From the IMG/VR virus record IMGVR_UViG_3300043219_000435: a stretch of DNA of 61,750 nt; one strand, given 5' to 3'. The DNA is from a virus. Lineage: Duplodnaviria; Heunggongvirae; Uroviricota; Caudoviricetes. The translations under genes were made by a program, and so were the position numbers. How positions within the stretch are numbered: position 1 is the first letter of the stretch; every line of letters starts with the position of its first letter. The notes beneath the pieces are model-generated. The model worked only from the letters and a program-made list of their open reading frames with translations. It searched no databases and was not told the origin of the DNA. Positions 943 to 60,948 of this stretch are shown here, one piece after another.

Positions 943-1049
943 TGAGTTCTCATGTTAAATAATTACATAAGAACTCCTTTTTTGATTGCCATAATACTTT
1001 AGTTACCTTTTTGATCATATGTCAATTACATATAATCCTTTTTTATAAA

Positions 1050-1404
1050 TGGAGATGAGGAGAATTGAACTCCTGTCCACAAAAACTTTAAAATAAACTG
1101 GTACAAGTTTTCCTTTGCTTTGTTTTTCGTCCTCACAGACCCCCAAAAAGGCCGGATTCTTGTGAAGCTTAACTGAAGTGTTGTTTAAATTAAAAAGCCC
1201 TCAATACGCTTTAAAATCGATCCTGTCATATATACCCAATCATCCATCCAGGACTAGAATAAAAGGGTCTAGTGCGATTAAGCAGCTAGTTTGTATGCGT
1301 TTGTGTTTGCATTTGTTGTTTTTCCGGTTTTTTTAAGAGGCCAACCAGAAATCCTCTACTTGCAGTTTAATCTTCCACTTCCATGTCGAAACCAGTGCAT
1401 CCCC
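1050..1404 (-). ncRNA. ssrA: tmRNA (transfer-messenger RNA), tag (A)ANTNAYKLAA*
   Basis: 5' GGGGATGCACTGGTTTCGAC; 3' GGAGTTCAATTCTCCTCATCTCCA; G3.U70 pair; pseudoknot-1-like GAGG/CCTC plus TCTGGTT/AACCGGA; tag ORF at 1310..1278. Confidence 0.95.
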
Positions 1405-1412
1405 AGTTTCAG

Positions 1413-1487
1413 TAGGCGTTGAGGGACTTGAACCCCCGACCATCGCTTTAGAAAAGCGGTGCTCTAATCCAGCTGAGCTAAACGCCC
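1413..1487 (-). tRNA. tRNA-Arg(TCT)
   Basis: Cloverleaf, anticodon loop TT-TCT-AA. Confidence 0.92.
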
Positions 1488-1512
1488 GAATATGTATGTA
1501 TGTATAATTTAA

Positions 1513-1587
1513 TGAGCGTAGTAGGACTCGAACCTACGACCTATGATTTCGTAAACCACAACTCTAATCCAACTGAGCTATACGCCC
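1513..1587 (-). tRNA. tRNA-Arg(ACG)
   Basis: Cloverleaf, anticodon loop TT-ACG-AA. Confidence 0.9.
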
Positions 1588-1929
1588 TTAAAAATCATCA
1601 ATACGTACAATATTTCTATACCAAGATAAATAAGATAATCTTATTCCTTGGACTTTTAAACGGTATTTCTTTTCTTTTCTCAATATTCCATATTTATCTG
1701 AAGAATTAAAATTAAAAAAGTATTTATCATCTGTTATTTCAAATGTTTCTACTTCTTTTTCATTTTTAACTCTTACAGTATATATAAGATATTTTTGTAA
1801 TTTGTCACTTTTTTCTGTAATAATAACATCTACATGCGATACTGTCAAGAAATATTTATACGAAACGGTTAAAAGTACAACTAAAGTGATCAAACCAATG
1901 GTCAACCACTTTAGTTTTCGAAGTGTCAA
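1588..1929 (-). CDS. membrane-anchored secreted protein, DUF1523-like
   Basis: N-terminal TM segment; YLIYT...FNSSD.Y..L...Y...V.G.R...LSWYRNI pattern. Confidence 0.6.
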   Translation of the reverse strand: MTLRKLKWLTIGLITLVVLLTVSYKYFLTVSHVDVIITEKSDKLQKYLIYTVRVKNEKEVETFEITDDKYFFNFNSSDKYGILRKEKKYRLKVQGIRLSYLSWYRNIVRIDDF

Positions 1930-2135
1930 ATATTACTCTCTATTTCCGCTTCAAGTTTTTTCAGTTTGTCACGCACTTTATCTTTATATAGATTAAGTGC
2001 AAACGTTCCACCAACTAAAAACCAATATCCAACACTAAAAATAGAGCCTTTAAATATAAATGCTGACAATACTGCCATATAAATAATCCAAGTATTGCAT
2101 ATTGCAAAATTCTTTATAGTTTCCAACGTTTTCAT
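1926..2135 (-). CDS. small membrane protein (start revised to MKTLETI)
   Basis: Two hydrophobic segments; SD AAGGA; a TTGACA promoter lies inside the longer ORF call. Confidence 0.6.
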   Translation of the reverse strand: MKTLETIKNFAICNTWIIYMAVLSAFIFKGSIFSVGYWFLVGGTFALNLYKDKVRDKLKKLEAEIESNI

Positions 2136-2201
2136 ATTCATTCCTTTTAAGTTAATATATTGATAATGTACTAACTTAAAATTTATTGTCAATAAATATT
2201 T

Positions 2202-2735
2202 TTATTTATAATCGGAGTATCGTTTTTCTTTTTCTATTTTCATTCTTTCTTTCTTATATGCACTTCTACCGGCAATTTTAACTGCCCAATAAACCTTATT
2301 TCTCTTATACCATCCAGCTCCATGATATTTACCCATTTCTCTGAGTAATGAATCTGAATCAGATCTTGACATATAATGACAAGCATAATTCATATCATGA
2401 ATATAAAAACCCATTAAGAAATCAGGATCATCGTTGTCAACCATAGATCTTAATTTTTCTGGTACTGAACCTTTATCAGATATAAACCCAGGCAATGCTG
2501 TATATTTACGAGTTATTTTTTTCTTATTAATATAAAGATCAATTTCACATTCCCATTTTTCAAGAAATACTACAATATTGCCTTTATGCATGATATCAAG
2601 ACTGTCCCAATTTGGAAGTAAAACTTCTTTATTGGTTTTTTTATACAAATAACTTTGAACTTGATCATAGTCACTTTTACAAGTGACTTGTTTAACAGTT
2701 GGTGTGACCTCATAACTTACACATAAAACTTTCAT
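2202..2735 (-). CDS. DUF1353-family protein
   Basis: PGFISDKGSVP...IHD..Y motif; upstream TATAAATA and AGGAGG. Confidence 0.7.
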   Translation of the reverse strand: MKVLCVSYEVTPTVKQVTCKSDYDQVQSYLYKKTNKEVLLPNWDSLDIMHKGNIVVFLEKWECEIDLYINKKKITRKYTALPGFISDKGSVPEKLRSMVDNDDPDFLMGFYIHDMNYACHYMSRSDSDSLLREMGKYHGAGWYKRNKVYWAVKIAGRSAYKKERMKIEKEKRYSDYK

Positions 2736-2786
2736 GGTAGCCTCCTTTATGAGTATTTATAGGAGTTATCTACTTTAGTTTATGAA

Positions 2787-2960
2787 TTAAGTACCGAATT
2801 CTCTTATATTCACTATCTTATCTTGAACAAATTCTTTTCTTTCATTATATTCTGCTTTTTTTCCAATATTATATTCATTTATTGGACGATGATACCCCAT
2901 AACACGAGTCCATATTTCACATTTTGTTCTTTCGGCATTATTTAAAACTGTAGTATCCAT
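2787..2960 (-). CDS. stand-alone NrdD C-terminal-like peptide
   Basis: CEIWTRVMGYHRPINEYNIGKKAEY matches the glycyl-radical loop (R..GY.R) of class III RNR. Confidence 0.75.
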   Translation of the reverse strand: MDTTVLNNAERTKCEIWTRVMGYHRPINEYNIGKKAEYNERKEFVQDKIVNIREFGT

Positions 2961-2987
2961 AAAGATATTATCCTTCTTCGTTAAAAT

Positions 2988-3019
2988 AAAAACTACCAAT
3001 CAATGATTAGTAGTTTTTT
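2988..3019. terminator. bidirectional-looking intrinsic terminator
   Basis: AAAAACTAC-CAATCAATGATTA-GTAGTTTTTT hairpin flanked by A/T runs. Confidence 0.55.
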
Positions 3020-3030
3020 AATTAGATTTG

Positions 3031-3198
3031 TTAATTATGACTTAGTTTCCAGGTCTCTCTGAATTTTTCAGCGTGTAATTTAATCCAATTTGATACTGCG
3101 GAAGTACCTAGATCAAATCCAGCTTTTTCACTTTCAATCCATTTATGTTTTTCAATCTCTTGAGCCTGGATAAACATGTATGTTTTGAAATTATCCAT
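3031..3198 (-). CDS. 55-aa protein missed by the ORF track (MDNFKTYMFIQAQEIEKHKWIESEKAGFDLGTSAVSNWIKLHAEKFRETWKLSHN), DUF4032-like motif
   Basis: SD GAGG, upstream TATAAATA (3219-3226), EIEKHKWIESEKAG.DLG motif. Confidence 0.7.
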   Translation of the reverse strand: MDNFKTYMFIQAQEIEKHKWIESEKAGFDLGTSAVSNWIKLHAEKFRETWKLSHN

Positions 3199-3226
3199 AT
3201 TTACCTCCGAGTCATAAGTATTTATA

Positions 3227-3409
3227 TCACTTTTGAACTTGGTCTAAAATACCAACTGAAGTAAGTAAACCACTTACATAAGCTTCTCTTTTAACTTTTT
3301 CTGCCTTTACAGCAAATCCTTTAAGATTTTTGTCATAAGGTAATTGTTGAACATCTTTAATGCGTTGATTAATTGCTCTTTTTGCTTCTTCAATTTCTTG
3401 AACTTTCAT
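3227..3409 (-). CDS. hypothetical protein (start revised to MKVQEIE)
   Basis: SD AGGAG; avoids overlap with the VWA gene. Confidence 0.6.
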   Translation of the reverse strand: MKVQEIEEAKRAINQRIKDVQQLPYDKNLKGFAVKAEKVKREAYVSGLLTSVGILDQVQK

Positions 3410-3417
3410 ATTTACTC

Positions 3418-4773: not shown

Positions 4774-4774
4774 A

Positions 4775-6732: not shown

Positions 6733-7275
6733 TTATTTTTTCCAGTAAATATAACTTTTCCAAGATTCTTCAATTTCGTTGCCTAAATGTCTATTAATTC
6801 GATTCATTATAATCGTATAAACACAAGAAGATTCATAAGGAATTGAAGGCTTGCACTTCAGTTTAAGCCCTGATTCTTTAAGGGATTTGTTCTCTTTATT
6901 CTGATTGCATTTTAAGCAAGACGCAACAATATTTGTGAAGTTTGTTGGTCCACCTCGATCACGAGGAATAATATGATCCCAGTGCATAGTTTTTAATGAC
7001 AAATTCTTGTTACAATATTGACAACTAAAGTTGTCTCTTTCAAGAATATTAATTCGAGTAAACTCTTTATATATTTTTCGAGTTTTCCCCATATGAATTG
7101 TATGTTTTAATCTAACTACTGCAGGATTTTTTGGAATACCGTTTTTATAACATTGGTCATCGTATTGTTCCAGAATATCAATTTTACCCTGGACATACAT
7201 TTTGATAACTTTTTTATGAGTAGTTATATTAAGAGGCATATAAGATTCATTGAGGATTAGTACTTTCTTTTTCAT
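6733..7275 (-). CDS. HNH endonuclease
   Basis: VLILNESY.PL; RD...CQYC; DHIIPR.RGG...N.V.SC..CN. Confidence 0.85.
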   Translation of the reverse strand: MKKKVLILNESYMPLNITTHKKVIKMYVQGKIDILEQYDDQCYKNGIPKNPAVVRLKHTIHMGKTRKIYKEFTRINILERDNFSCQYCNKNLSLKTMHWDHIIPRDRGGPTNFTNIVASCLKCNQNKENKSLKESGLKLKCKPSIPYESSCVYTIIMNRINRHLGNEIEESWKSYIYWKK

Positions 7276-7299
7276 AATCCACGCCACTTAAATTAAAAA

Positions 7300-9209: not shown

Positions 9210-9230
9210 ATTATATACCCTTTTAACTAA

Positions 9231-9259
9231 AGTATATAAAAAATATTAACTGAAGTCAA
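9231..9259 (-). promoter_or_regulatory. sigma70-type early promoter; both hexamers overlap ACTTYAGTT motifs
   Basis: TTGACT-17-TATACT. Confidence 0.8.
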
Positions 9260-9582: not shown

Positions 9583-10415
9583 CAATGGTGTATTTCAATG
9601 TTTCTTATTTTTTTATGACCTGTTACATTCTCTGAAGGATAACCTAAAGGATTGCAGATAATGTCAGTCTTTTCAATTCGAAAATCATATTGTTCATGAG
9701 TATGTCCAAATACCCAAATTTTCGGTGCTGCTTTAGCTGTTAAATACTTCATACCATCAAAAAAGAAGAATCTGGTATTTGTATCATCATATTTGGCCGG
9801 TATATTTTTAGGTAAAACCGGACCTACATGGCTTAAGAACACATCAACATTTTCAATATTCTTTTCAAGTTTTGCTATTTCTTCATCTAATATGAATTTA
9901 TAACTCTTCATATTGTATATATAATTGGCATCATTCATGAAGTAAAGCCATTTCTCTTTAATCTGATCTTCAGTAAGATTTGGCTCAAAATTGCTTAATT
10001 TCCCATCATACCACATATCAGTGCCGGAATATTTAACTCCATCATGCTCGATTATTTCACCATCTGAAACATATACATTTTCAATATCATCAATCTTAGC
10101 TTTCATTTCTTGAACACGATTAAACGAATTTCTAAAGTATTTGTTCTGTTGTGTTTTTGAAACTAAATAATAATCATGATTACCAAAGGTAACAATAACT
10201 TTCTTATATATTTTGCCCAATAGCTTTAGCATGTAGGCGTTTTGTTTATTGCTATGTCCAATGTCCCCAGCAATCAATAAAACGTCTTGTGGCTCTTCTG
10301 GAAGGATATTATTAACAAGATTTTCGATATGAAACTCTTGCTTATGATGCACTGTATGCATCTGTACATACATGTCTAAATGTATGTCTGATATAAAGTC
10401 AAAGTTAATTACCAT
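9573..10415 (-). CDS. calcineurin-like metallophosphoesterase
   Basis: SDIH, AGDIG, GNHDYY, FGHTH. Confidence 0.9.
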   Translation of the reverse strand: MVINFDFISDIHLDMYVQMHTVHHKQEFHIENLVNNILPEEPQDVLLIAGDIGHSNKQNAYMLKLLGKIYKKVIVTFGNHDYYLVSKTQQNKYFRNSFNRVQEMKAKIDDIENVYVSDGEIIEHDGVKYSGTDMWYDGKLSNFEPNLTEDQIKEKWLYFMNDANYIYNMKSYKFILDEEIAKLEKNIENVDVFLSHVGPVLPKNIPAKYDDTNTRFFFFDGMKYLTAKAAPKIWVFGHTHEQYDFRIEKTDIICNPLGYPSENVTGHKKIRNIEIHHWED

Positions 10416-13501: not shown

Positions 13502-14929
13502 CTAAGCAGCCATTATATATTCTGGCGAATTCTCTATTACCTCATTGAATGTGTACTCTTTTATAAGTTCACCGTTAAGAAATACAGTTTGTAACTGGTC
13601 TTCCAGGGTTGTCACATTTGTAGTACTGTAATTCCCTTCTTCATCTTTGATTAAATATTGAATACCTTTCTTTGATTTTTTGGTAGAATCCAAAGGATCT
13701 TTGAATATATCATGCCATATTCCATCTCTACATTGTGCAGAACTCTTAAATGCATTTCTCATGGTATCACGATTAGTCTTTTGTATCAGACCACCGCCCA
13801 TTCCAAAGCATATATTTTCAATAGAAAATCCAAGAGATTTCACAAGTTCGAGGATATTAGCAATGTCATCTATATCCAAGCCATCACCCCATATCATGCC
13901 AACTTTAGAATTTAATACTTTGTACTTCTTTTTGTTTAAAGTAGTACCGAAGTTTTTTTCTAAAGACTTTAGTATATAAGGAATGACTACCATATAATCA
14001 TCCGAGTCTGGACGTATAACAACTTTACCATCTCTTTCGAGAATCTTTTGTTTGTAGATTTTACCTATGATATTATCAACAAAATTTTTCCAATCATAGC
14101 TATCACAAACAATAGATAAAATTCCTTTATCGAATTTATCAATAATTTTGCCTGTACGTCTTGACTCACCTTCTCTACCTTCAGAAGTCATTACGCTGTG
14201 TTCAGTTGCAGGAACTGAGTATGCGTTGACCATTTTAGTATTATAATAATCTCTAGCCGTTTTAATGGCACTGAGATTGTCTGTACCCCAAAAGTTAACT
14301 AGGTGTCCTGAACCATTCCAACTTGAAGTAAAGTGATTAGAACCGCCTCTATAGCCAAAATCATGTAGCATAAACTGAAGTATAGCAGCGATTTTATCAT
14401 CATCACAAGTATCTTCAAGAGATCCTCTGCACATTTCTTTGACCATATAACTTAGGGTTGCGGTAGTTGTTGTTGACCAAACGTGAGTCAATAAAGATTC
14501 AACGTGTCCAACAAGCCATTCACATTCAGGATCTGTATTAATAACATCAAAACAAATGTTTCCGATTGGCATTACAGTTCCTTCAGGGACTGCTTTGATT
14601 CTGATTGGTAGAACCCCACCATGTTTTTTCAAGATATAATCCCATCTTTCAATATCTACATGTTCAAGACCGGTTTCAAAGTGATTCTCCAATATCTCTT
14701 TTGCTTCATCAATATGTTCTTGCAAAACAACTTTCCCCACAAGGAATCGTTTGATGAAAATTTGCAAGCCATAAAATTTAACCAAAGGGAATGATGATCC
14801 TTTTCTACATTCATTATATGAATAATTGAATTCAGTAGGAAGTTTCATTCCGTGGTGAACCATTTTGTACGAGTCTGAAGCCAAGATTGGATTGAAATCT
14901 GGATCGTAAAACTTTCTCATTGCAACCAT
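13502..14929 (-). CDS. nadV: nicotinamide phosphoribosyltransferase (NAMPT)
   Basis: DSYK..H, HDFGYRG, PATEHSVMT, SIVCDSYD, IRPDS, GDG, FGMGGGL. Confidence 0.93.
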   Translation of the reverse strand: MVAMRKFYDPDFNPILASDSYKMVHHGMKLPTEFNYSYNECRKGSSFPLVKFYGLQIFIKRFLVGKVVLQEHIDEAKEILENHFETGLEHVDIERWDYILKKHGGVLPIRIKAVPEGTVMPIGNICFDVINTDPECEWLVGHVESLLTHVWSTTTTATLSYMVKEMCRGSLEDTCDDDKIAAILQFMLHDFGYRGGSNHFTSSWNGSGHLVNFWGTDNLSAIKTARDYYNTKMVNAYSVPATEHSVMTSEGREGESRRTGKIIDKFDKGILSIVCDSYDWKNFVDNIIGKIYKQKILERDGKVVIRPDSDDYMVVIPYILKSLEKNFGTTLNKKKYKVLNSKVGMIWGDGLDIDDIANILELVKSLGFSIENICFGMGGGLIQKTNRDTMRNAFKSSAQCRDGIWHDIFKDPLDSTKKSKKGIQYLIKDEEGNYSTTNVTTLEDQLQTVFLNGELIKEYTFNEVIENSPEYIMAA

Positions 14930-31861: not shown

Positions 31862-32166
31862 TTGTTGTCTTTCAAATATTTTTGACAAAATTTTCTAACT
31901 ATTTCATCATCATCTCTTGATTTTAATATTGCATCAATATTATCATTTACTTCAAGACATTTTTCAATCACTTTAGTTTCAAGTAATTCATCAATGGAAT
32001 CATCAAGATATGAGCTTAACATTTCAATGATACGATCTTCTTCACTAGATATCATATCTTTCATTCTCAATTCGGCTTCAGTTATATGTTTAGTAATTCT
32101 TTGTTCACAAATAATTTCCAAATCACGGAGTCTTTTATCAAATTCATTATAACTAATACAGCTCAT
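31858..32166 (-). CDS. hypothetical protein with shared C-terminal AI..S/K...VR.FC..YLK motif
   Basis: Similar tail in 49395, 49723 and 50305 ORFs. Confidence 0.65.
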   Translation of the reverse strand: MSCISYNEFDKRLRDLEIICEQRITKHITEAELRMKDMISSEEDRIIEMLSSYLDDSIDELLETKVIEKCLEVNDNIDAILKSRDDDEIVRKFCQKYLKDNK

Positions 32167-32708
32167 TACTCAACTCGTTTTAATTTTCTTATTTTCAAAT
32201 TCATTTCATATACAGAGCCTTTATCTAAAGGCTTTGAATTGGTAAATGGCTTTGTTGAAATATTAAGTTTATTATCACAATAAAACTTGTTATCTTGATT
32301 GATAAAAGCATGAAGATGTTTGTTATTATAAAGGATATAATTGTCTTCTTTATTTTCTTTTAAACTACTATAACTGAAGTCTTTAAACACTTTAGTTCCG
32401 GTAGACCACATGTAAATATATTTAAAACATATCCTGGTAGGAAAAACAGTTTTGATGATATTGTCTTTAATATCTATTTTTTGGATATTCAGAATATAAT
32501 AAGACCCATGGAAAGCATTTTGAGATTCGTTTTTTGATGCGGATTCGAGATCTTTTTCATCAAAGACCTTAACCTTTCTAACATCTTTTACAACTCTATA
32601 CGTTAATGGGTTTATTAAATAAAGTGAATAGGCTTGTAACCCTAATGATTTATTTGATAATTGTTCGATTATAAAGTCTTTATCGAAACTTCCTATAATC
32701 TGATTCAT
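32166..32708 (-). CDS. hypothetical protein
   Basis: ORF track; downstream of a sigma70 promoter. Confidence 0.6.
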   Translation of the reverse strand: MNQIIGSFDKDFIIEQLSNKSLGLQAYSLYLINPLTYRVVKDVRKVKVFDEKDLESASKNESQNAFHGSYYILNIQKIDIKDNIIKTVFPTRICFKYIYMWSTGTKVFKDFSYSSLKENKEDNYILYNNKHLHAFINQDNKFYCDNKLNISTKPFTNSKPLDKGSVYEMNLKIRKLKRVE

Positions 32709-36369: not shown

Positions 36370-36825
36370 CTATGAAAATAATTCTTTTTCAGTTATAATT
36401 TTAAACTCGTAGCCATACTGTTTACAATATTGTTCAGCAGCAGACCATTTGCATTTATTTTTCTCAACCATTAAATAACGATGTTTAAAATTCTTCAAAG
36501 CTTTCTGGGTTTTCTTTTTTGGCATTTTAGGATAATCAACTTGATCAGAAGGTTTAACTTCAATTAACATTTTCGTAATTTTGTTATTTTTAGTTTTAAC
36601 TTCTGCATAGAAATCAACAATATATTTATGAACTTTACTATCAATTGTGTAGAAATAAGGTATCGTAATTATCTCACTCCCCCATTTGATAATATTTTCA
36701 TTGTGATCTAGATAGTACATTGTTCTTTTTTCCCAACTAGATCTAAATACAGGAGCACTATTTCCTAAGTATTTCTCTTTGTTTACTACTTCATAAGTAC
36801 CTTGATGCCATTTTCCAGAAGCCAT
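36370..36825 (-). CDS. 4: head completion nuclease (T4 gp4, TnsA-like)
   Basis: N.EKY.G....FRSSWE...WGSE...IPY...Y.VDFY...EVKP. Confidence 0.88.
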   Translation of the reverse strand: MASGKWHQGTYEVVNKEKYLGNSAPVFRSSWEKRTMYYLDHNENIIKWGSEIITIPYFYTIDSKVHKYIVDFYAEVKTKNNKITKMLIEVKPSDQVDYPKMPKKKTQKALKNFKHRYLMVEKNKCKWSAAEQYCKQYGYEFKIITEKELFS

Positions 36826-38121: not shown

Positions 38122-38537
38122 TCTCTCTCTATTCTTGATATTCCAGGTGATCTAAATTGTGACTTCATTGCTTTAAAATAAGCATCTTTTGTGATCGTAC
38201 CAAATCCACAATTGTTAGAGCCTGGAACATTATAAACAGTACCCTCATCATAGAATTCAATATCTTCACCTGTTAATCTATCTATAAATGTTATTTGTGC
38301 TTTAGGGCTATAACTAACTTTAAACTTTGCTAAACCACCAAACTTTGGGTCGTCTTTTTTAATTATTGCCATGCCATCATTTTTGCAAATATCTTCAACT
38401 ATACGTATATCTTTAAGACACAAATTGTACACTTCTAATACAATAAAATGTTTATTAAAGAAATTATAAACTAAAGTAGCAGTCAAGCCATTCTTAACAC
38501 TAACCTCAAGTCTTAAATCTTCTATTTCTATTTTCAT
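38118..38537 (-). CDS. hypothetical protein
   Basis: ORF track, coupled to neighbours. Confidence 0.6.
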   Translation of the reverse strand: MKIEIEDLRLEVSVKNGLTATLVYNFFNKHFIVLEVYNLCLKDIRIVEDICKNDGMAIIKKDDPKFGGLAKFKVSYSPKAQITFIDRLTGEDIEFYDEGTVYNVPGSNNCGFGTITKDAYFKAMKSQFRSPGISRIERD

Positions 38538-39544
38538 TATTTGTCTCCAAAATAATAACGATAATCACCATAAGAGTTCTCAAAACAATCTTTTAAATCA
38601 TCAAAACTAAAGTGTTTTACTTCATTGTTTTTAACTACATCATTTATATCTTTAATTTTTTTATCGTAATATTTAAACTTTTCCCAAATGAAAACCTTCT
38701 TACCATTCAGGTGAAATTTTCTTGCAAACTTTTTTCCTGGTTCATCATTATCAAATAGGTAATAGCAATCAAGATTTGATAATGTTTTCTTCATATGTTT
38801 TGACATCTCTAAACCAAGAGTTGCAATTGCATTATCAATAAACATTGAATCGATCGGACCTTCAGTAATAATTACCGGTTTACTTTTATCGATATTATAA
38901 AGATTATATAATGCGAATTCTTTCTTACCTTTCATATTAAGATATTTAGGTTCTTTATTTGAAAGAGTTCTTGCTTGAAAGTAATACATTTTATTATTAT
39001 GATCGTAAAATGGTATGATCATTCTGTCATAATATGGACCATCAACAGCAACCATAAACTTTTTATAAATCTTTTCAGGGATATGTCTTTGTTTACATTG
39101 ATGAATAGCTTTTCTAAATATCATATCATTTGAATGATCAATAGGTCTAAAATCTTTTAAATATTCATCTATTTCAGTATCTTTTGGTATTTCACGTACT
39201 TTAGTTGCAACTGTAACCGGTAGAATATGTTTATTTTTTACTTCATCATATTCGAAGCTTTCTTTACAATAAAGTTTGAAAATAGACAAATCGGTTTCTT
39301 TCAACCATCTTCTTGCTGACCATGTATCAGAAGCTGGACAACCAGCATTAAAACATTTATAAAACCAAAAATCTTCGGATTGACCTAATTTTAAATGACC
39401 TCTGAGTTTATTCTTATTTTCAGAGTCGCCACATATATTACAATTTATTTGAATTTCAGTGTCACGAATAATCGATGTATCAAATCTTCCAACAGCCATC
39501 CGTAAGAATTTCTCTAAAATCTGTGTCTCTAATTTCTTATTCAT
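38537..39544 (-). CDS. 61: DNA primase (T4 gp61)
   Basis: CNICGDS...CFNAGC; RMIIPF; TOPRIM EGPIDSMF, FDNDEPG. Confidence 0.92.
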   Translation of the reverse strand: MNKKLETQILEKFLRMAVGRFDTSIIRDTEIQINCNICGDSENKNKLRGHLKLGQSEDFWFYKCFNAGCPASDTWSARRWLKETDLSIFKLYCKESFEYDEVKNKHILPVTVATKVREIPKDTEIDEYLKDFRPIDHSNDMIFRKAIHQCKQRHIPEKIYKKFMVAVDGPYYDRMIIPFYDHNNKMYYFQARTLSNKEPKYLNMKGKKEFALYNLYNIDKSKPVIITEGPIDSMFIDNAIATLGLEMSKHMKKTLSNLDCYYLFDNDEPGKKFARKFHLNGKKVFIWEKFKYYDKKIKDINDVVKNNEVKHFSFDDLKDCFENSYGDYRYYFGDK

Positions 39545-43492: not shown

Positions 43493-46072
43493 CTATTTTT
43501 TTATTGTCATCATTTCACTCAGTATGTTTCCACGCAAATTAATTTTGCCCCAACCGAGTACGTTAAACATTCTTTGAATAACACTCATGAATGTTTTTTC
43601 AAACTGTATGTCATAATCTATTTTGAATAGATCTTCAAATTCTTTTGGATATGCACCTATAAATGCTATAATATTAGTATTCAATACATTAGTGTCTTTT
43701 ATGTATACATATTTTACTTTAGTTCCATTTCCGGCAACCATATATGGAAAATTATTTGACTTGATAGCATAATTATAACAGATTGCAGCTCTTACATGAA
43801 TTGGTGTTTTCTTTCTGAAACTCAATCCTTTATCAAGGTAATAATCCATAGGTTTGGAATATTTATCATAGCCATTGATACCAGATACAGAACTTATATT
43901 TTCAACCAAGTCTTTCTTAAATTCTTTCTTAATATGTCTTAATGTTTTAAGAGTCATATCTTTATCAAGATTGTCAAATAATTCTTGAATAACATCTTTG
44001 ATATAGCTTCTACTAAATAATGGAGTATCACTTCTTACAACTTCTACACCTTTATATTTAATGGTCGGCTTATCATATACTTTATCTTCATTAGCAAGCA
44101 ATTCAACAATATATTTCTTCTTAGCCAATACGAATTGTTTAGTGATAATTCCTTCACGTTTATATCGAATAAGATTTTTAAGTCCTCTTTGTCTATAAAA
44201 CTTATCAAGAACTTTAGTGAAAAATGGATCAAGAACTTCCTCATCCATCATAGTTGCGAATTCCATAAAATCCATATCAGGAGCATAGTTTTTTCTTATT
44301 TCACTTAAACAGATATAGTTTGAATCTGTATCAATAACACGTACTAATTTGTTTTTCAATGGTTGAGGATTTTCAATAACTGGTAAATGTCTATCATAAA
44401 TCTTATGCCAATAATTCTGAAAATAATAATCAGTCTCACGAGCAAGATGTTTAATAAGCACTCTTCCACCTCTAGTAACTGCTCGTGCATTGTCAACATC
44501 ATAGAAATGGAAGAATTTCGATCCCATCACACCATATAAACTGTTAATCATAATCTTTCTGATCAATTGCATAGAATGATTATAATGTTCCCCTACCGCA
44601 TCCCCATTCTTCTCACATTCAAACATCAATTTTTTAAAATGTTTTCTTTCATTGAAAATCTTCTCAATGATATCAGGGAAAATTCCTTTAACATTTTTCT
44701 TATAATAAACACCATTGATTTCTGTTTTAATCAAATATTTCAAATCTTTATCTTCGGGCTTGATTACTTTAGTTTCTGGCGATATATTATAAGTTATAAT
44801 CATCCATGGATATTCTGATTCAATATCTTCAGATATCATATCTTCATAGAATCCTGGTTCAGCATAACAATAACCACCTTTAATATAAAATGGATCAAAG
44901 GTTTTTTTCTTATCTTCAGTTTTTACGTTCTGTAAATGTCCATCGACTTTAAAATATCCTTCTTCAAGCCACCAATCTCTTGTAACTTCTTTTCTATCAG
45001 GCATAACCATTTTTCTTTTATGGAGATTCCTGAGAATAAATCCTTCTAAAACAGATATTGAACTAAATACTCTTTCAAATGGAATCAATGTTTGATAACA
45101 TATTGTCACAACAAGTTCGATAAACTTTAGTTTTATGTCAAGTTTATCTACAACTACAACATCTTGAATATTATATTCAACAAAAAGATTCCAATCAGTT
45201 TTATAAAGTGTATTGAGAGTACCTTCAAAACCTAATTTACCACCTACTTTTTCAAACATTCCAACCGAATCTAATGAATAGGATGGTAAAGTTTCAAAGG
45301 TGAATTTTTTATATAGTTCCAGGTAATCCAGCTGGGATAAACCGGCTATCATATAGACTTTTTTAATCTCTATTGAACCGTCTTGTTTCCTGGTTCTTTT
45401 TTCAACAAGCTTTACTATTCCGAGTGGAGATAATTTTAATTCTATTCCAGAAGAGGTAAGATTTTTAATTCGATTGATAATGTATTTCATATCGAAATCA
45501 GTTGAGTTCCAACCGGTTACGATATCAAATTTCATGTTTGACCACCATTCTACGAAGGCAGTTAACATTTCCAATTCGTTTTCTATAAAAATATATTTAC
45601 CTAAACCTTTAATCTCTCTTGTAATTTGAGATGTTCCAAAGGTATAGAATTTTTCAGTTATAGAACTTTTGACCGTAATTAAATTTATTGGATATAATGC
45701 TTCGTCAGGTTCTGGAAATTCATCTTCACCAGCAACTTCAATATCGATTTTCGCAGTATGAATGCTACTCATATTAGCTTTCAAATCAACATCTTGATAA
45801 CGCTCTTGTAAGTATTTTATTTCTTCATTTATGTCCGATTCACATATTTTTAATTGAAGATTTTTGATTCTCCTTACATCCATATACTTATTTTTAGTAT
45901 ATTTCTTTATTACAGGAGTACCATAAATATCCTTGTATACAGCAGCACCACTTCTATCTTCCACATAGAAATACTGATTTAAATCTTCTGTTAATTTTAC
46001 AGTCTTATCATTAAAACATTCCCATAAATGGACCTGTTTCGTTTTAGGATTTACAAAAATATTTTTAAACAT
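43493..46072 (-). CDS. 43: family B DNA polymerase (T4 gp43)
   Basis: DIE exonuclease; D..SEYP; RK.MINSLYG; DTDS; KKKY; KGVE.VRS. Confidence 0.96.
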   Translation of the reverse strand: MFKNIFVNPKTKQVHLWECFNDKTVKLTEDLNQYFYVEDRSGAAVYKDIYGTPVIKKYTKNKYMDVRRIKNLQLKICESDINEEIKYLQERYQDVDLKANMSSIHTAKIDIEVAGEDEFPEPDEALYPINLITVKSSITEKFYTFGTSQITREIKGLGKYIFIENELEMLTAFVEWWSNMKFDIVTGWNSTDFDMKYIINRIKNLTSSGIELKLSPLGIVKLVEKRTRKQDGSIEIKKVYMIAGLSQLDYLELYKKFTFETLPSYSLDSVGMFEKVGGKLGFEGTLNTLYKTDWNLFVEYNIQDVVVVDKLDIKLKFIELVVTICYQTLIPFERVFSSISVLEGFILRNLHKRKMVMPDRKEVTRDWWLEEGYFKVDGHLQNVKTEDKKKTFDPFYIKGGYCYAEPGFYEDMISEDIESEYPWMIITYNISPETKVIKPEDKDLKYLIKTEINGVYYKKNVKGIFPDIIEKIFNERKHFKKLMFECEKNGDAVGEHYNHSMQLIRKIMINSLYGVMGSKFFHFYDVDNARAVTRGGRVLIKHLARETDYYFQNYWHKIYDRHLPVIENPQPLKNKLVRVIDTDSNYICLSEIRKNYAPDMDFMEFATMMDEEVLDPFFTKVLDKFYRQRGLKNLIRYKREGIITKQFVLAKKKYIVELLANEDKVYDKPTIKYKGVEVVRSDTPLFSRSYIKDVIQELFDNLDKDMTLKTLRHIKKEFKKDLVENISSVSGINGYDKYSKPMDYYLDKGLSFRKKTPIHVRAAICYNYAIKSNNFPYMVAGNGTKVKYVYIKDTNVLNTNIIAFIGAYPKEFEDLFKIDYDIQFEKTFMSVIQRMFNVLGWGKINLRGNILSEMMTIKK

Positions 46073-47006: not shown

Positions 47007-47065
47007 TTGACTTCAGTTAATATTTTTTATATACTGATTATATCATTAATATTAACTGAAGTCAA
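47007..47065. promoter_or_regulatory. overlapping convergent sigma70 promoters built on inverted ACTTCAGTT motifs
   Basis: Plus TTGACT-17-TATACT (47007-47035); minus TTGACT-17-TATAAT (47065-47037). Confidence 0.7.
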
Positions 47066-47072: not shown

Positions 47073-48341
47073 TTAAAATACATTAATTAATCTGTCAATA
47101 TATTGTTTCGATTCTAGGTATCTTCCTTCATTTTCCATCTTCTCATATTGCAGTCTTCTAACTCTATTAAAATTATTAGGTTCACAATGTTTTTTGATTA
47201 AAACATCAATATCTTCAACTGTACAATCTTCAGGAAGAGTGAGAAAACAATGATCATATGGTGATGAAGATCCATCAGTAAAGGTTGTACCAATAGCTAA
47301 TGATCCATCAGCAGAATGTTCTAAGAATTTGAGATCACTTTTTGCTCTATTGAAATTATTTCTTACGAGAGGCATAATACCAAAATCTGCATTTTCAGCT
47401 CTAACAACATTAGGATATTGATAAGAATTAACCCAGCCATGAACTTTTATTTTATCTTTGATAGGCTCAAGGAACCATGGAAGACCGCCAAATACTGCGA
47501 ATTCAATTTCATCATTCTTAACAGCTTTAAGAACCCATTCTTTCCAGGCATTATCCCAATCACCAAGCAATTTTTCTCCATTAGAATAATGTGTTGGTGA
47601 ACCAGTATAAATCACTTTTGGTTTCTTAATAGTTTCTGTAATATCGTCTTTTCTTTTGTAACCCCAAAAGTATTTAGGAACACAATTCGGAACAACTGTT
47701 ATAGGAGTTTTAATACCCAATTCATTTTGATAATAATCTTTTAAGAATGTAGTAGATACTATTACAAGATCCATTAATTTCATAATTTCAACAGAAGCTT
47801 CTTTAATTTCTATTGAAATTCCTTTACTACCAAAATTATAAGACGGTACTCCGTCTTCAACATTACCATCTTGATTTTCATTAAATCCATGAATATGATC
47901 ATCCATTTCCCAAATCATTTTATATTTGAATTGTGCTTGATGTTGTTTATATTGTTTTATAACTTTAAGATGATCAGGTGTCATTTGACGTTGAAAAAAA
48001 AGTGATCTTGCTCTTGCAAGAATATCATTTTGATAAATGAATGTAGGTGATAAGATCATATTCATTTGACCTGTTTTACCAAATACAGAATTAAGGTAGG
48101 TCAGCCAAAAAACATTTCTTATATGACCACATCCACTAGAATCACTCATAAAAGAAAGTACAATATTCTTTTTAACTTTAACAGCGCCAGGAGGCAATTT
48201 TTCTTGTGATGCACCTGCAGGGTTTTGTGATTGTGCTTGAAGCTGTTTTTGAAACACTTCTAAACTTTGTTGTGCATTAGGTTGAGATGCAGCTTTTAAT
48301 TGTTTTTCAAATTCATTAAGGTTGCTTGTACTCATATACAA
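47073..48341 (-). CDS. glycosyltransferase (GT-B-like)
   Basis: SGCGHIR, FQRQ, WEMDD, V.VST..L, VPN, GS.TH, PL..N.FN..KS..K.LE. Confidence 0.78.
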   Translation of the reverse strand: MYMSTSNLNEFEKQLKAASQPNAQQSLEVFQKQLQAQSQNPAGASQEKLPPGAVKVKKNIVLSFMSDSSGCGHIRNVFWLTYLNSVFGKTGQMNMILSPTFIYQNDILARARSLFFQRQMTPDHLKVIKQYKQHQAQFKYKMIWEMDDHIHGFNENQDGNVEDGVPSYNFGSKGISIEIKEASVEIMKLMDLVIVSTTFLKDYYQNELGIKTPITVVPNCVPKYFWGYKRKDDITETIKKPKVIYTGSPTHYSNGEKLLGDWDNAWKEWVLKAVKNDEIEFAVFGGLPWFLEPIKDKIKVHGWVNSYQYPNVVRAENADFGIMPLVRNNFNRAKSDLKFLEHSADGSLAIGTTFTDGSSSPYDHCFLTLPEDCTVEDIDVLIKKHCEPNNFNRVRRLQYEKMENEGRYLESKQYIDRLINVF

Positions 48342-50922: not shown

Positions 50923-51477
50923 TTAACATTCCCAATCGTCCAATATTATTACATTATCAGATCTATCAAGATTTTCGATATAAAACAGAGATGTGAACTT
51001 AGTCATGTTCTTATTTGTTTTATTGATATTCTGTAAGAAGGCATTAAATGCTATTTGAGTAAAATAAGCAAATGGATTACTTCTTGTAGTATCATATCTA
51101 TCAATGTAAATGCACATGAAATACGTTCCATCACTTATCATTGTATCTTTACGTAACGGATCATAGTTGATAAAGTTTGGTTTTTTTAAAATTCCGTCAC
51201 ATATTAGTAAGAAAAAACGACCTAATCTATTTTTAAGTTTATCAAGTTTTTTTATTCTATCAGTTTTTTCGTCTTCAGATTCAGAATCAATTAACATTTT
51301 TCTCTGTTCAAGTAATTCTTTTCGATATTTAACAAAGTTTTCATCAGAATCATTTTTAATTTTTTTCTTTAAAAACCAATCAGATGTATCATAATTAAGT
51401 TCCTGATATTCTTTTAACATTTTTAAAAATTCTTCATTATTAACATAATCTTTTCTAATCTTTTTTTCTTTTGCCAT
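50923..51477 (-). CDS. 55: late-transcription sigma factor (T4 gp55)
   Basis: YVNNEEFL; I...I..KPNFINY...MISDG...NPFAYFTQI..NAF. Confidence 0.92.
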   Translation of the reverse strand: MAKEKKIRKDYVNNEEFLKMLKEYQELNYDTSDWFLKKKIKNDSDENFVKYRKELLEQRKMLIDSESEDEKTDRIKKLDKLKNRLGRFFLLICDGILKKPNFINYDPLRKDTMISDGTYFMCIYIDRYDTTRSNPFAYFTQIAFNAFLQNINKTNKNMTKFTSLFYIENLDRSDNVIILDDWEC

Positions 51478-51487: not shown

Positions 51488-53236
51488 TCAAGTCTCTTCT
51501 CTTATTAAAGAGAAACCATTGCTCTTCTCAATACGAAGTTTTTTTGAGAAGAAATCTTTGCTATGTAATCTGTGAGATATTACATATACACATAGATTTG
51601 AATTTTTATCCACTAAATTCTGTAAGGATTCTAATATCTGTACTAAACCTTCATGATCGGTTGATGAATCTAGTACTTCATCCAGGAATAAGATATTGCA
51701 TCTCCAATTAGCTATATCTTTCATTATTTGAATAAAACTGAACATAACGCTTAAATCAATACGTTTTTGTTCACCAGCACTAAATGTGCCGTAACTAATC
51801 TGTTTCTTATTGATAATATTCTGGATATTCTCAACCATTGTTTCATCAAACTTTAATGATACCGGCAATGAGAACAAATTCAAATATTCATTTATTTTTA
51901 CATTTAAGTTCGGAAGGAATTTCTTATACAAATAAGATTTTATTCCATTGTCAGATAATACTTCAATCGATTTATTGTTGATTTCTATATCTTTCAATAA
52001 TTTTTTGTTATTAGTATCGAGTGTTTCAAGTATTACTTTTTTACCTTCAGCATCACCCAATAATGAATCTATATCAATATCATATACTGCACATGCTTCT
52101 TTTGTATATGCTTCTTTAAGTGACTTCAGTTTGTCTTTATAATTGTTTTCGTCTGCATCTATTTTTATAAAGACTTTTTCTACTTTAGTTAATTGATCTT
52201 TTTTCTTATTTTCATCATCGATTAATGATTTATTATCAATTAATTTTGATTCTAAATCTTTAATATTATCTTGAAATTCGATAATTTCAGATTGATAAGT
52301 ATTGATATGATTTTTTTTATGTGATTCAGTTAAATGCGATTTACAATTAGGACAGTTATCGTTATCATTTAACAATGATATTGCTTCTTTATTGTTTTTA
52401 ATCTTCATATTATCAACAATAATATCTGATGATAAGTTATGTCTTTCTTCAATCAAGAGTTTGAGATCCAGGAATTCTAGATTTTCGATAATAGCTTTGC
52501 CTTTATCTCTTCCTTTACAACATTTCACAAGCTGCTTTTCACATTCATCAATATTTTTTTGAATAGCATTTAATTTCTTTTCTTTTTCATCATTGAAATT
52601 CTTTTCAATGGATTTGAGCTTTTCAATATATTTTTCTAAATTCTCAATCTCTGATTCAGTAGCGTTATAAGAAGTTCTGCTTAGCTTATAATCAACATCT
52701 ATTCCTTTTTGCCTGTTCTTGATCTCAGCCAATATCTTAGATACAATGCTGATCTGGAATATATTTTCGAATAGATTCCGTTTATCGTTTTTGGGTAGGA
52801 GTAGAAATGGTTTATTATAATTTACTGCTAAACAAATTACTTCTTTAAATAACGTGTAATCAATTGCGAGTATATTATTGATTTCTGCTTGGACTCTGGC
52901 TGTAGATGGCAATTCATCTTGCTCTACATTATTCTTCCATATTTTTAAAATCTTCGGCTTGATGCCACGTTCTATTTTATACGTATCACCATTGGCAATA
53001 AATTCTACCTCAGTATAAAGGTTTCCTTTATTTTTACGATTTATCAGCTCTTCCAATTTTATCTTTCGATATGGTTGACCAAATAAACCAAATGACAGGG
53101 CATCCAGTATAGAACTTTTGCCCTGCCCATTCATACCAATAATTTGATTCAAACCGGAACTAAAATCAACAACAGTCAGATTATTCCCATAAGAGAGAAT
53201 ATTCTTAAACTTCAAATTAAGAAAATCAACAAACAT
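51488..53236 (-). CDS. 46: recombination ATPase (T4 gp46, Rad50/SbcC-like)
   Basis: G.NGQGKS, CPNC hook, FSAGEQKR, LDEVLD, ISH. Confidence 0.94.
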   Translation of the reverse strand: MFVDFLNLKFKNILSYGNNLTVVDFSSGLNQIIGMNGQGKSSILDALSFGLFGQPYRKIKLEELINRKNKGNLYTEVEFIANGDTYKIERGIKPKILKIWKNNVEQDELPSTARVQAEINNILAIDYTLFKEVICLAVNYNKPFLLLPKNDKRNLFENIFQISIVSKILAEIKNRQKGIDVDYKLSRTSYNATESEIENLEKYIEKLKSIEKNFNDEKEKKLNAIQKNIDECEKQLVKCCKGRDKGKAIIENLEFLDLKLLIEERHNLSSDIIVDNMKIKNNKEAISLLNDNDNCPNCKSHLTESHKKNHINTYQSEIIEFQDNIKDLESKLIDNKSLIDDENKKKDQLTKVEKVFIKIDADENNYKDKLKSLKEAYTKEACAVYDIDIDSLLGDAEGKKVILETLDTNNKKLLKDIEINNKSIEVLSDNGIKSYLYKKFLPNLNVKINEYLNLFSLPVSLKFDETMVENIQNIINKKQISYGTFSAGEQKRIDLSVMFSFIQIMKDIANWRCNILFLDEVLDSSTDHEGLVQILESLQNLVDKNSNLCVYVISHRLHSKDFFSKKLRIEKSNGFSLIREET

Positions 53237-57693: not shown

Positions 57694-57720
57694 TTTGATT
57701 AGTTATTGAGAGATACTTCG

Positions 57721-57750: not shown

Positions 57751-57798
57751 GTGCTCTTTTTTGAACATATAAATAATTAATATATCTGGTATTGAATT

Positions 57799-59322
57799 AT
57801 GTTTGAAGAAGAAAACGTTATATGTTTGAAAAAGTTGAATGAAATATATTTTCATGTAACTTGTACGGTTGGTCAAAGCCTGGAATTAAAATCTTATTTT
57901 CAGTGTTATATAAAAGATCACAAATTTCATCCTAAAGTTAAAAAGAAAATTTGGAACGGAAAGATATCATTTTACAAATACAGAGAACAACATTTACCAA
58001 TAGGTTTGCTCGTTCCTTTTACAGCCTTTTGTAAGAAATTCAAATATAAGTATGAGATCGAAGAAGATCACAATCCATTAGTAAATAGTAAAGCAAATCC
58101 TCCGGCAATTGTTGAAGGTTGTAAACAATTATTTGAAGGTGTAAAAACCAATGATGGTAAAGATTTATTTCCTTATAACTATCAAATGAAAGCTGTTTAT
58201 GCTGCAATAAAAAAGAAACGTGGAATATTGATGGCAGCTACTGGTTCTGGAAAAAGTTTAATGACTTATATTCTTACCCGTATTTTTCTAAATATGAACA
58301 AAAAAATATTGATTGTTGTTCCTACCACTACTTTAGTTGAGCAATTATACACAGATTATCTTTCATATGGATGGTTTGACTTATATAGAGATGTTACGAA
58401 ACTATATTCTGAAGTAGAACCTGACTTTACCAAGAGCGTTCTTATAACTACTTGGCAGAGCGTATATAAGAAGCCTGGGGCCTTCTTTCACCAATATGGT
58501 GCAGTTGTGTTCGATGAATGCCATTATAACCGCTCAGATAGCTTAAAACGGATTGCTGCGAATTGTGTGAATGCTGACTATAGAATCGGAACTACTGGAA
58601 CACTTCCAGATGAAAGAGTTGATCAATTTAACATTTATGGATATTTGGGAACGGTAATATTTGAACAATATTCAAAAGAACTAATTGATAGGGGTATATT
58701 AGCTCAGATTGAGATAAAAAACTTAATACTAAAGTATTCAGCTAAAGCAGTTAGTGATTGTAAAAACGTATCATATCATGATGAAGTTTCTTATGCAAAT
58801 AATTACCCACAAAGAAAACAAATATACGAGCATATTTTTAATCAATATGTTAAAGAGGGTCAAAATAGTTTGGTGTTGGTTAATAAAATAAGTGTTTTGT
58901 TAGACCTCGAAAAGACTTTTAAAAAGAAATTAGATAGTAAATACAAAATATATGTCGTGTATGGTGAAGTTGAAACAGAAATTCGTGAACATATTCGTTT
59001 GATGACTGAGAATTCTGAAAATGTTATCATACTATCAACATTCCAATGCTTTTCTACTGGGATAAATATTAAGAGATTACATAACGTAATCTTTGGTAGT
59101 TCTTATAAATCTAAGATTAAAGTACTTCAGTCTATTGGTAGAGGATTAAGAACACATGAATCTAAAGATAAAATGATGTTATTTGATATTGTTGATGATT
59201 TACGTTGGTTAAGCAGAAATGGTGTGGTTCATCACAATCATTTATTTAATCATTTCCTTGAAAGAATTAATCATTATGATAAGCAAAAGTTTAAATATCA
59301 TAATGTTAAAATCAAAATATAA
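57799..59322 (+). CDS. uvsW: SF2 DNA helicase UvsW
   Basis: YQ..AV, ATGSGKS, VPTT.LV.Q, DECH, GTTGT, GINIK.LH, QSIGRGLR. Confidence 0.94.
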   Translation: MFEEENVICLKKLNEIYFHVTCTVGQSLELKSYFQCYIKDHKFHPKVKKKIWNGKISFYKYREQHLPIGLLVPFTAFCKKFKYKYEIEEDHNPLVNSKANPPAIVEGCKQLFEGVKTNDGKDLFPYNYQMKAVYAAIKKKRGILMAATGSGKSLMTYILTRIFLNMNKKILIVVPTTTLVEQLYTDYLSYGWFDLYRDVTKLYSEVEPDFTKSVLITTWQSVYKKPGAFFHQYGAVVFDECHYNRSDSLKRIAANCVNADYRIGTTGTLPDERVDQFNIYGYLGTVIFEQYSKELIDRGILAQIEIKNLILKYSAKAVSDCKNVSYHDEVSYANNYPQRKQIYEHIFNQYVKEGQNSLVLVNKISVLLDLEKTFKKKLDSKYKIYVVYGEVETEIREHIRLMTENSENVIILSTFQCFSTGINIKRLHNVIFGSSYKSKIKVLQSIGRGLRTHESKDKMMLFDIVDDLRWLSRNGVVHHNHLFNHFLERINHYDKQKFKYHNVKIKI

Positions 59323-59357
59323 ATAGTGATATAGAAAGTTTTTTAAAGAGGTTAGAA

Positions 59358-59777
59358 ATGCCTAGTGTAGTATATAATAATTTTAAAGCAGCCGTTTTGG
59401 GAGGAAATTTTTCTCTGTCGGCATCTGATCCTAGCGGTTACAACTTAATACTAATGAGTGGTTATAGCCCAGATATTGTTGACGATGTTGTATATAGTGA
59501 TATAAGTTCACTAGAAACATCAGGAACCGGATATACTGCCGGTGGTAAAGAATTATCAGCAATGTCTTTATCTGCGGATAATACAAATGATCGTGGTGTA
59601 TGGGATTCTGACGATGTAACGTTCTCAGATTCAACTATTACTGCAGACGGTGCGGTATTATATAAAGTAGCTGACGGTAATCTGATATGTTATATTGACT
59701 TTGGTTCATTTAAATCCAGTTCTGCAGGTGATTTTAATATTGCTTGGAATGTTAATGGTATCTTAACACTCAACTAA
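59358..59777 (+). CDS. late structural protein (phage head/tail accessory)
   Basis: SGTGYTAGG...D..D.T....TITA.GAVLY...IDFG pattern. Confidence 0.6.
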   Translation: MPSVVYNNFKAAVLGGNFSLSASDPSGYNLILMSGYSPDIVDDVVYSDISSLETSGTGYTAGGKELSAMSLSADNTNDRGVWDSDDVTFSDSTITADGAVLYKVADGNLICYIDFGSFKSSSAGDFNIAWNVNGILTLN

Positions 59778-59794
59778 AGTAATTAGGTAATTAA

Positions 59795-60574
59795 ATGACT
59801 ATCGACGTATCTGCCACACAAGATTCTTATTTTGTAATATGTAGTCCTACCGTGACTGTTGACGGTGCAAATATAATAAATTGCACCGGCAGTTTACCAA
59901 ATTCTTATTGGGACAAAGAAACATCATGTCATGATGGTGAAAAGGCCATGTACGATCAATTACAAATGGATGCCTGGAATTCATTTGGTATTGATATGAC
60001 TTATTATATAGCGGATTATAATACTAGCTATGACAAACTATATGGTGAAGACCGAGATAGGTATATAACAAGAACATTTAATTTTAAGGGATATATTCAA
60101 AGTTATCCTGAAGAAAAGAGTCAGTATTCTTTATACGGTATAGAGGGTTTAGATAATTTTATATTTTGGGCTAACATACAACATATGAGTTTTATGTCAA
60201 CACTTGATGAATTAGGAAATACTCAATATACATCTCATATACCTATAGAAGGTGATGTAATAAAATTTGATTATAGTGATTTATACTATGAAATCATGCA
60301 TGTAGTTAAATCAGCAAATCAATTTTTACAAACACAACATTCTTATACAATTATTGTAAGAGTATTCAGAGACATCCATCTAACACTTAGTCCATTAGTA
60401 TCATCTGATTCATTATCTGCATTTACAGATAAGCCTAAAGACATATTTGATATATCGGACGACATCGATGATGAAAAATTAGAGTTCCTATTCAATACGT
60501 CAGCAGCAAACGAAGAACCTATCACACCTGATCCATACCCTCCGGTTAACGACGACCCCTTTGGTGGCTGGTAA
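59795..60574 (+). CDS. neck/head-tail connector protein (gp14-like)
   Basis: E....FGID..YY...D.LYGED....F...YI...PIEGDVI.F.....YEI..V. Confidence 0.6.
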   Translation: MTIDVSATQDSYFVICSPTVTVDGANIINCTGSLPNSYWDKETSCHDGEKAMYDQLQMDAWNSFGIDMTYYIADYNTSYDKLYGEDRDRYITRTFNFKGYIQSYPEEKSQYSLYGIEGLDNFIFWANIQHMSFMSTLDELGNTQYTSHIPIEGDVIKFDYSDLYYEIMHVVKSANQFLQTQHSYTIIVRVFRDIHLTLSPLVSSDSLSAFTDKPKDIFDISDDIDDEKLEFLFNTSAANEEPITPDPYPPVNDDPFGGW

Positions 60575-60621
60575 ATTATAAATAAAGATATAAAACATAA
60601 CACTGATAACAGGAGAACCCT

Positions 60622-60948
60622 ATGTCATTTACAGAATATAAATACACAGAAGAAACTAAAGTACAGTCAGACAAAAACAAAGATTGTATGATGGAGTCTA
60701 TTAATATCGACGAAAAAGATATTAAAATGCTTAAGCTATACTCAGAAAATAAAGAAGATATATCAATACCTTCATTAATAGATTTAGTTCTATTAAACCT
60801 TAAAGACAAATCTGTCAAATCTGAAAATTTTGATGAACTTAAAATTTTTAAAATGATAACAGAAGATGGATCAATTACATCTTCTGGCAAGACTTATCTT
60901 GAATCAGTAGACACTAAAGAAAGACTAAAAGTTATTTTAAAAGACTAG
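60622..60948 (+). CDS. late hypothetical protein
   Basis: Late promoter, SD AGGAG. Confidence 0.6.
   Translation: MSFTEYKYTEETKVQSDKNKDCMMESINIDEKDIKMLKLYSENKEDISIPSLIDLVLLNLKDKSVKSENFDELKIFKMITEDGSITSSGKTYLESVDTKERLKVILKD

Follow-up and report, generated by a model that had tools for sequence, protein, structure and literature searches.

What maintains a nine-letter word, AACTRAAGT, at about one copy per 630 bases and on both strands of a phage genome is the question raised by the caudoviricete sequence IMGVR_UViG_3300043219_000435, of which we analyzed a stretch of 61,750 nucleotides (hereafter the window) that corresponds, as the reverse complement, to positions 1-61749 of a virus contig of 104,109 bp (G000). 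An exact search recovers 87 copies between positions 383 and 61412 of the window (41 on the plus and 46 on the minus strand), 62 of them inside open reading frames (ORFs). The 87 copies are an approximately 44-fold excess over the 1.98 ± 1.36 copies (maximum 6) seen in 100 dinucleotide-preserving shuffles. The initial annotation had counted by eye about 79 copies (38 plus, 41 minus) between positions 996 and 60661, or one per ~800 bp at 25-30 times expectation; the enrichment and the dense tagging are borne out, but these figures were low, and two further copies (at 383 and 61404) lie outside that range. The evidence set out below establishes AACTRAAGT as a recognition word maintained by selection on the DNA itself.

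A sharply bounded word pervades a T4-like genome

Across the whole contig the word occurs 165 times (84 plus, 81 minus) and is present in every 10-kb bin, which extends to the rest of the contig the genome-wide distribution first seen in the window. The absence of polarity noted at the outset likewise holds, both for the contig as a whole, where each strand bears about one copy per 1.26 kb, and within genes, where 64 copies lie on the sense and 57 on the antisense strand. The two forms, AACTAAAGT and AACTGAAGT, occur 105 and 60 times, respectively, and every one-letter variant just 0-9 times, at or below expectation, so that the degeneracy is confined to a purine at position 5. As these one-letter variants are at background, the specificity appears as sharp as that of an enzyme. 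The word is asymmetric, with its center (RA) and its first letter (A) breaking the palindrome, and T is under-represented at position 10. The flanks are nearly information-free, with just a tendency for 'not G' before the word and for A or G after it, and this rules out a longer repeat or a mobile element as its source. We found no paper containing AACTRAAGT in the open-access literature, and a full-text search listed none describing a phage genome so crowded with a word.

The contig, with a GC content of 30% and an estimated completeness of 42% (CheckV), has its best public DNA match in a marine sediment metagenome. It encodes a T4-type gene set, viz., a family B polymerase (PolB), a gp41-like helicase, UvsX, gp32, a Toprim primase, RNase H, SbcCD-like gp46/47, UvsW, UvsY, a gp55-like late sigma factor, and a neck protein, along with 23 tRNAs and a tmRNA. 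Its PolB is ~30% identical to gp43 of cyanophage and pelagiphage.

Selection acts on the DNA rather than on codons or peptides

While 121 of the contig copies lie in ORFs, the remaining 44 fall in the 11% of the sequence that is non-coding, giving a density of 3.76 per kb in non-coding as against 1.31 per kb in coding DNA. The genic copies are read as T[K/E]V (52 copies), T[L/S]V (38), LQ (13), LK (12), or FS (6); all five stop-free frames are thus used, the sole unused frame being that in which TRA would be a stop codon. The frames listed in the initial annotation (TKV, TEV, TLV, TSV, and LK) were correct, and LQ and FS complete them. Its observation of a copy inside the tmRNA gene is also correct (positions 1171-1179, plus strand). 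In contrast to the 121 observed in ORFs, shuffling the order of codons within genes leaves 4.0 ± 2.0 copies, and shuffling synonymous codons with the protein sequence held fixed leaves 21.8 ± 3.8. The enrichment therefore remains under both the dinucleotide- and the codon-preserving null models that had been named for it at the outset, and the two codon-aware shuffles, together with the usage of frames, rule out a codon or peptide artefact.

The commonest frames do employ the favored codons ACT, AAA, and GTT, as would be expected had the word arisen from codon usage, a recurring peptide, a longer repeat, or an assembly error. However, both codon-aware nulls miss the observed number by 6- to 30-fold, five frames and non-coding DNA are occupied, the flanks are devoid of information, and the independent assembly of a relative (see below) carries the same word. 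The chance that the word is an artefact of this kind is negligible.

The word has, moreover, shaped the proteins of the phage. The tripeptides TKV, TEV, TLV, and TSV are over-represented 2.8-4.2-fold in them, and SKV, TKI, and TKL, which would be conservative substitutes, are depleted. The word spells 72-93% of the T[K/E/L/S]V tripeptides, as against 7-15% predicted from codon usage.

The word is conserved in a relative and absent from outgroups

A relative (G001), with a PolB 77% identical to that of G000, is represented by a genome of 211,777 bp that is 93% complete; in another assembly the contig bearing its PolB is 248,963 bp long. It holds 332 copies (158 plus, 174 minus), i.e., one per 638 bp, a density equal to that of G000, as against 9 copies of the reversed word used as a control. 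Positions 1-78 kb of the G000 contig are collinear with this genome, and an alignment of 57.8 kb at 71% identity contains 35 sites common to the two, 34 restricted to G000, and 29 restricted to G001. Thus, about half of the word sites are kept, whereas random 9-column windows of the same alignment are identical in just 8.8% of cases. One site has reversed its orientation in place via its two center letters (AACTTCAGTT to AACTGAAGTT); therefore, either orientation serves.

The word was not found in four outgroups (L003, L089, L300, and L301; PolB 47-53% identical) that have kept the same replication module, nor in ~660 kb of more distant T4-like contigs. Searches of IMG/VR with promoter-plus-word and double-word patterns returned only chance matches or mild 4-6-fold cases and no further members of the clade. 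The outgroups show no clear alternative word, with just a mildly enriched heptamer, TCGAAGA, in L301 (PolB 49%), which at 24 copies in 22.5 kb (8.6-fold) may be a codon-level effect and is not comparable to AACTRAAGT. The word is accordingly private to a small clade of ~210-250-kb T4-like phages from marine sediment, in which it is written on either strand wherever the proteins tolerate it. Judged by this comparison of sequences, it behaves as a clade trait under purifying selection; individual copies within the PolB gene are given in Table 1.

A second word with a coupled outer pair

A second word, AGCTRAAGC, shares with the first the CTRAAG core and the purine degeneracy, with the outer pair jointly changed from A..T to G..C, and is usually followed by A. 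There are 15 copies in the window between positions 9730 and 58748, against 0.44 expected, and the ORFs of the contig contain 33, against 2.8 under the codon-order and 8.3 under the synonymous shuffle; G001 has 61 copies, with none of the control. Words in which the outer pair is mixed (A..C or G..T) stay at background in G000 and G001 alike. Among the 64 words composed of a palindromic arm, RA, and the complementary arm, only those with NCT..AGN' arms are enriched, which argues against a general stem. On its own in single-stranded form, a word does not fold (minimum free energy of 0), and this rules out a free single-strand hairpin. The coupling of the outer pair is not predicted by a homodimer that reads its two half-sites independently; it might reflect a mini-hairpin stabilized by a protein, two distinct readers, or a coupled readout.

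AGCTRAAGC contains TGCTTYA, the T4 MotA box, which in T4 is centered at -30 upstream of a -10 element. We rejected this interpretation, as 45 of 47 copies lie inside ORFs; the MotA C-terminal domain was also not found in G000 or G001, a weak negative as the control for the family matched nowhere either.

Arrangement of the copies

Neighboring copies are co-oriented in 65 of 164 pairs in G000 (P = 0.010) and 141 of 331 in G001 (P = 0.008), i.e., they alternate above chance, most strongly at gaps of 100-300 bp. Pairs less than 100 bp apart are convergent in 28 and divergent in 13 cases. The initial annotation had envisaged a lattice of binding sites. In the sense of even spacing this is not supported, because the slight regularity in G000 (coefficient of variation 0.86, P = 0.03) gives way in the near-complete G001 to clustering (1.26), one region having 28-41 copies per 10 kb and others 5-9.

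A minority of the copies, below 15% of the total, are fused to promoter hexamers. TTGACT+TYAGTT occurs 5 times in the G000 contig, in about 4 of these with a 17-bp spacer and then a -10 element, and TATACT+TYAGTT occurs 7 times in G000 and 46 times in G001.

Comparison with known genome words

The textbook cases of hyper-abundant recognition words come from a few bacterial groups, viz., the uptake signal sequences (USS) of Pasteurellaceae, the DNA uptake sequences (DUS) of Neisseriaceae, Chi, and the HIP1 element of cyanobacteria. Those otherwise found in phages are, to our knowledge, just a handful of one-strand nick sites, whose function is unknown; nick-associated words also occur in T5 and phiKMV. 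Known Chi sites are 5-8 nucleotides long and G-rich. AACTRAAGT is like Chi a short, asymmetric, over-represented word, and Chi can protect linear DNA from a helicase-nuclease, but Chi is polar, defined by the host, and much sparser, whereas AACTRAAGT is unpolarized in the phage and absent from the outgroup phages. With HIP1 it shares hyper-abundance of a short word inside genes, but HIP1 is a true palindrome linked to a methyltransferase, whereas AACTRAAGT is asymmetric and the methyltransferases sought were not found (see below).

The likeness to USS and DUS is more extensive: these too are short, asymmetric, and strict, occur about once per kb in both orientations and inside genes in all open frames, and form inverted pairs. 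The early suggestion that AACTRAAGT behaves as a genome tag of the uptake-sequence type thus holds with respect to its density, its two orientations, and its presence inside genes. Uptake sequences have also been described, in an excerpt of the pertinent study, as affecting the proteome (PMC2817400). Unlike them, AACTRAAGT resides in a T4-like virus rather than a competent bacterium, with no involvement of an uptake machinery; it is about twice as dense as USS, lacks their cloud of one-letter variants, and takes up nearly all the permissive tripeptides.

The closest published parallel is the nick word of the phages tf, LUZ24, and Rembedalsseter, TACT/RTGMC (= WACTRTGAC), which is cut after ACT, is strict at positions 1, 3, and 4, occupies conserved sites in related phages, and rarely shows single-letter variants (PMC3517423, PMC11780129). 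Like it, AACTRAAGT is a strict word of nine letters that is private to a group of phages and has a purine at its center, with W-A-C-T-R as its first five letters, and it keeps its positions among relatives.

Candidate readers and hosts

DNA methyltransferases of the C5, N6/N4, and D12 families (PF00145, PF01555, PF02086) were not found in G000 or in the 93%-complete G001, and we rejected on this ground a methyltransferase-linked drive. A 184-aa HNH endonuclease (Table 1) is 70% identical between G000 and G001, and a search of 5.8 billion proteins revealed no further close homologue; members of the same family with ~30% identity occur in cultured large phages, including cyanophage S-TIM5. A second HNH-like protein is encoded nearby, but the two sequences are unrelated, and we therefore rejected the notion that the two genes are paralogous readers of the two words.

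As for the host, a query of a genome collection with one phage gene, NAMPT, recovered as its only cellular relatives one Saccharibacteria and one Brevinemataceae metagenome-assembled genome. In a sample of 151 Patescibacteria and one Spirochaete genome, which includes these two and may not contain hosts, the word is not enriched, the highest density being ~1 copy per 13 kb. Since the word is private to the clade and absent from both the outgroup phages and the sampled bacterial genomes, the comparison leans toward a reader owned by the phage.

What reads the word?

Hundreds of copies on both strands, half of them held across deep divergence, imply a strong, clade-specific DNA transaction. AACTRAAGT is very probably a word that functions at the level of DNA and is recognized by a reader owned by the clade. 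We infer that this reader acts in either orientation and is a sequence-specific protein encoded by the clade itself; the word is missing from outgroups that share the replication module. Taking the tf-type word as a model, we tentatively propose that AACTRAAGT is the nick or recognition site of a phage enzyme. A putative site-specific nicking endonuclease would cut AACT/RAAGT as the tf/LUZ24-type nickase does TACT/RTGMC, and from the nicks, transient and intracellular, T4-type recombination-dependent replication and late transcription would obtain 3' ends and points for clamp loading. The phage would then benefit from additional sites, which would account for their being held in position. The presence of a T4-type replisome, UvsX/Y/W, gp46/47, and gp55 counts in favor of this proposal, for which the 184-aa HNH protein is the only concrete, if weak, candidate nickase. 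It appears unlikely, by comparison, that a single clade enzyme, perhaps this HNH protein, reads both words on the DNA of the phage and opens hundreds of transient entry points for recombination-dependent replication and clamp-activated late transcription, with the density of the word itself being selected and the proteome reshaped by it.

Several points weigh against a nickase. The tf-type words lie on one strand at ~9-14 copies per genome, with ~13 for the word of tf and Rembedalsseter, whereas AACTRAAGT is on both strands at 165-332 copies, and their nicks have been physically shown, whereas AACTRAAGT is known from sequence alone. Convergent or divergent copies just 9-22 bp apart exist and would therefore yield double-strand breaks if both were nicked at once. 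A nickase acting in a simple way would not be expected to produce the joint change of the outer pair in the second word. The HNH family does not predict the word, for S-TIM5 shows no hyper-abundant word in the 50 kb examined despite its homologue, and the clade restriction of the HNH gene is weak evidence because most genes of such phages are clade-restricted.

Non-cutting binding sites, at which a small terminase subunit, a compaction protein, or a global regulator would mark, package, or regulate the phage DNA, are the reading favored by the initial annotation; they likewise explain the DNA-level selection, the absent polarity, and the clade privacy, and both the subset fused to promoter hexamers and the nearly threefold higher density in non-coding DNA would suit them. 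Yet no candidate protein was found, the even spacing of G000 is not reproduced in G001, the promoter-fused copies are a small fraction, and hundreds of redundant sites predict weak selection per site, whereas half are held at 71% identity; on balance we regard this reading as somewhat unlikely. A signal belonging to a host system, either a Chi-like attenuator of the host RecBCD/AddAB or a host uptake sequence, might have been accumulated by the phage for protection or exchange. The short, strict, and asymmetric form, the USS-like density, and the effect on the proteome, comparable to that described in the excerpt cited above, are in line with such a signal; a circularly permuted T4-like genome would require it in both orientations, and neighboring copies do alternate above chance. 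Nonetheless, the word is missing from outgroup phages that belong to the same broad group, its density exceeds that of any bacterial USS, its length and composition depart from those of known Chi sites, and the sampled bacterial genomes are unenriched, although this last point is weak as they may not be hosts. A host signal is hence distinctly unlikely.

The words could alternatively act in single strands, specifying lagging-strand primers that start with AC... or GC.... T4 primase uses the template triplets GTT and GCT, which are the ends of the complementary strands of AACTRAAGT and AGCTRAAGC, respectively, in keeping with the A or G at position 2 of the two words. A gp61/DnaG-type primase is indeed encoded here, the spacing of copies per strand is near the size of Okazaki fragments, and enrichment is restricted to NCT..AGN' arms whose outer pair is complementary, a hint of a protein-stabilized single-stranded mini-hairpin. 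However, the primase gene is likewise part of this module in the outgroups, which lack the word, known primases read three letters rather than nine, and single words do not self-fold, leaving a priming signal quite improbable. Very improbable, in our estimate, is a molecular drive without function, in which near-words would become words through biased repair or conversion, as in HIP1 or very-short-patch processes. The near saturation of the permissive tripeptides and the missing cloud of one-letter variants are what it would produce, but the word is not palindromic, methyltransferases of the three families sought are lacking, the purine-only degeneracy and the complementary outer pair of the second word resemble readout by a protein, and the conservation of positions is a prediction of purifying selection.

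If a clade-owned reader is indeed at work, viruses can own 'genome words' comparable to uptake sequences. Its discovery would reveal by what means a large phage distinguishes its own DNA from that of the host or organizes its replication, and might yield a new DNA enzyme specific for 9 bp.

Individual copies and neighboring genes

Table 1. Copies of the word and associated genes, in coordinates of the window
Feature	Position	Strand	Remarks
tmRNA gene	1047-1404	minus	Carries one copy of the word
184-aa HNH endonuclease	6733-7287	minus	Clade-restricted core gene; weak candidate reader/nickase; copies of the word at 6855 and 7023
Second HNH-like protein, 197 aa	7388-7981	minus	Sequence unrelated to the 184-aa HNH
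Two copies in one sigma-70-like promoter	9225-9256	minus	Overlap the -35 (TTGACT+TCAGTT) and the -10 (TATACT+TTAGTT); contig positions 52494 and 52517
Copy at the left edge of a strain-variable segment	31970-31978	minus	Single case
Convergent inverted pair, 8 bp apart	32372-32397	both	Inside an ORF
DnaG/gp61-type primase (Toprim)	38537-39544	minus	Bears on the priming alternative
PolB copy	43716-43724	minus	Codes GTKV; only in G000, with GSKI at this place in G001
PolB copy	44766-44774	minus	Codes ETKV; common to G001; outgroups keep the peptide without the word
PolB copy	45124-45132	minus	Codes KLKF; word at the same position in G001; outgroups keep the peptide without the word
Back-to-back promoter-like pair	47010-47062	both	Each copy fused to a TTGACT -35; contig positions 14688 and 14732
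gp55-like late sigma factor	50923-51477	minus	Indicates T4-type late transcription

The two promoter regions of Table 1 have the strong sigma-70-like form TTGACT-TYAGTTAATATTTTTTA-TATA(A/C)T, and one promoter of the back-to-back pair would fire antisense to the upstream gene. At the strain-variable segment, a ~95%-identical strain (runs X2 and X4) has 152 other letters in place of the 116 bp at 31979-32094, the swap starting directly after the copy of the word. We rejected a general swapping of cassettes at the word, as the ends of the homology blocks shared by G000 and G001 show no enrichment in the vicinity of words (4 against 2.8 and 5 against 2.3 within 10 bp; 6 against 6.3 and 10 against 5.6 within 30 bp).

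IMG/VR labels G000 a 'provirus', which looks doubtful because no host flank is visible and T4-like genes occur wherever ORFs are annotated, with the word in every bin. Between the gp47 and the DHH/PolB genes, a 422-aa ORF (47073-48341, minus strand) shows a weak match to a PHROG glycosyltransferase and none to Pfam; ORFs of 404-422 aa, alike in size and position alone, occupy the matching position in G001, L300, and L301. A 151-aa protein (36370-36825, minus strand) matches both the N-terminal fold of TnsA-like endonucleases in Pfam and the 'head closure' annotation in PHROG, and a 150-153-aa ORF of this TnsA-like Pfam family adjoins the RNase H gene in G001, L300, and L301.

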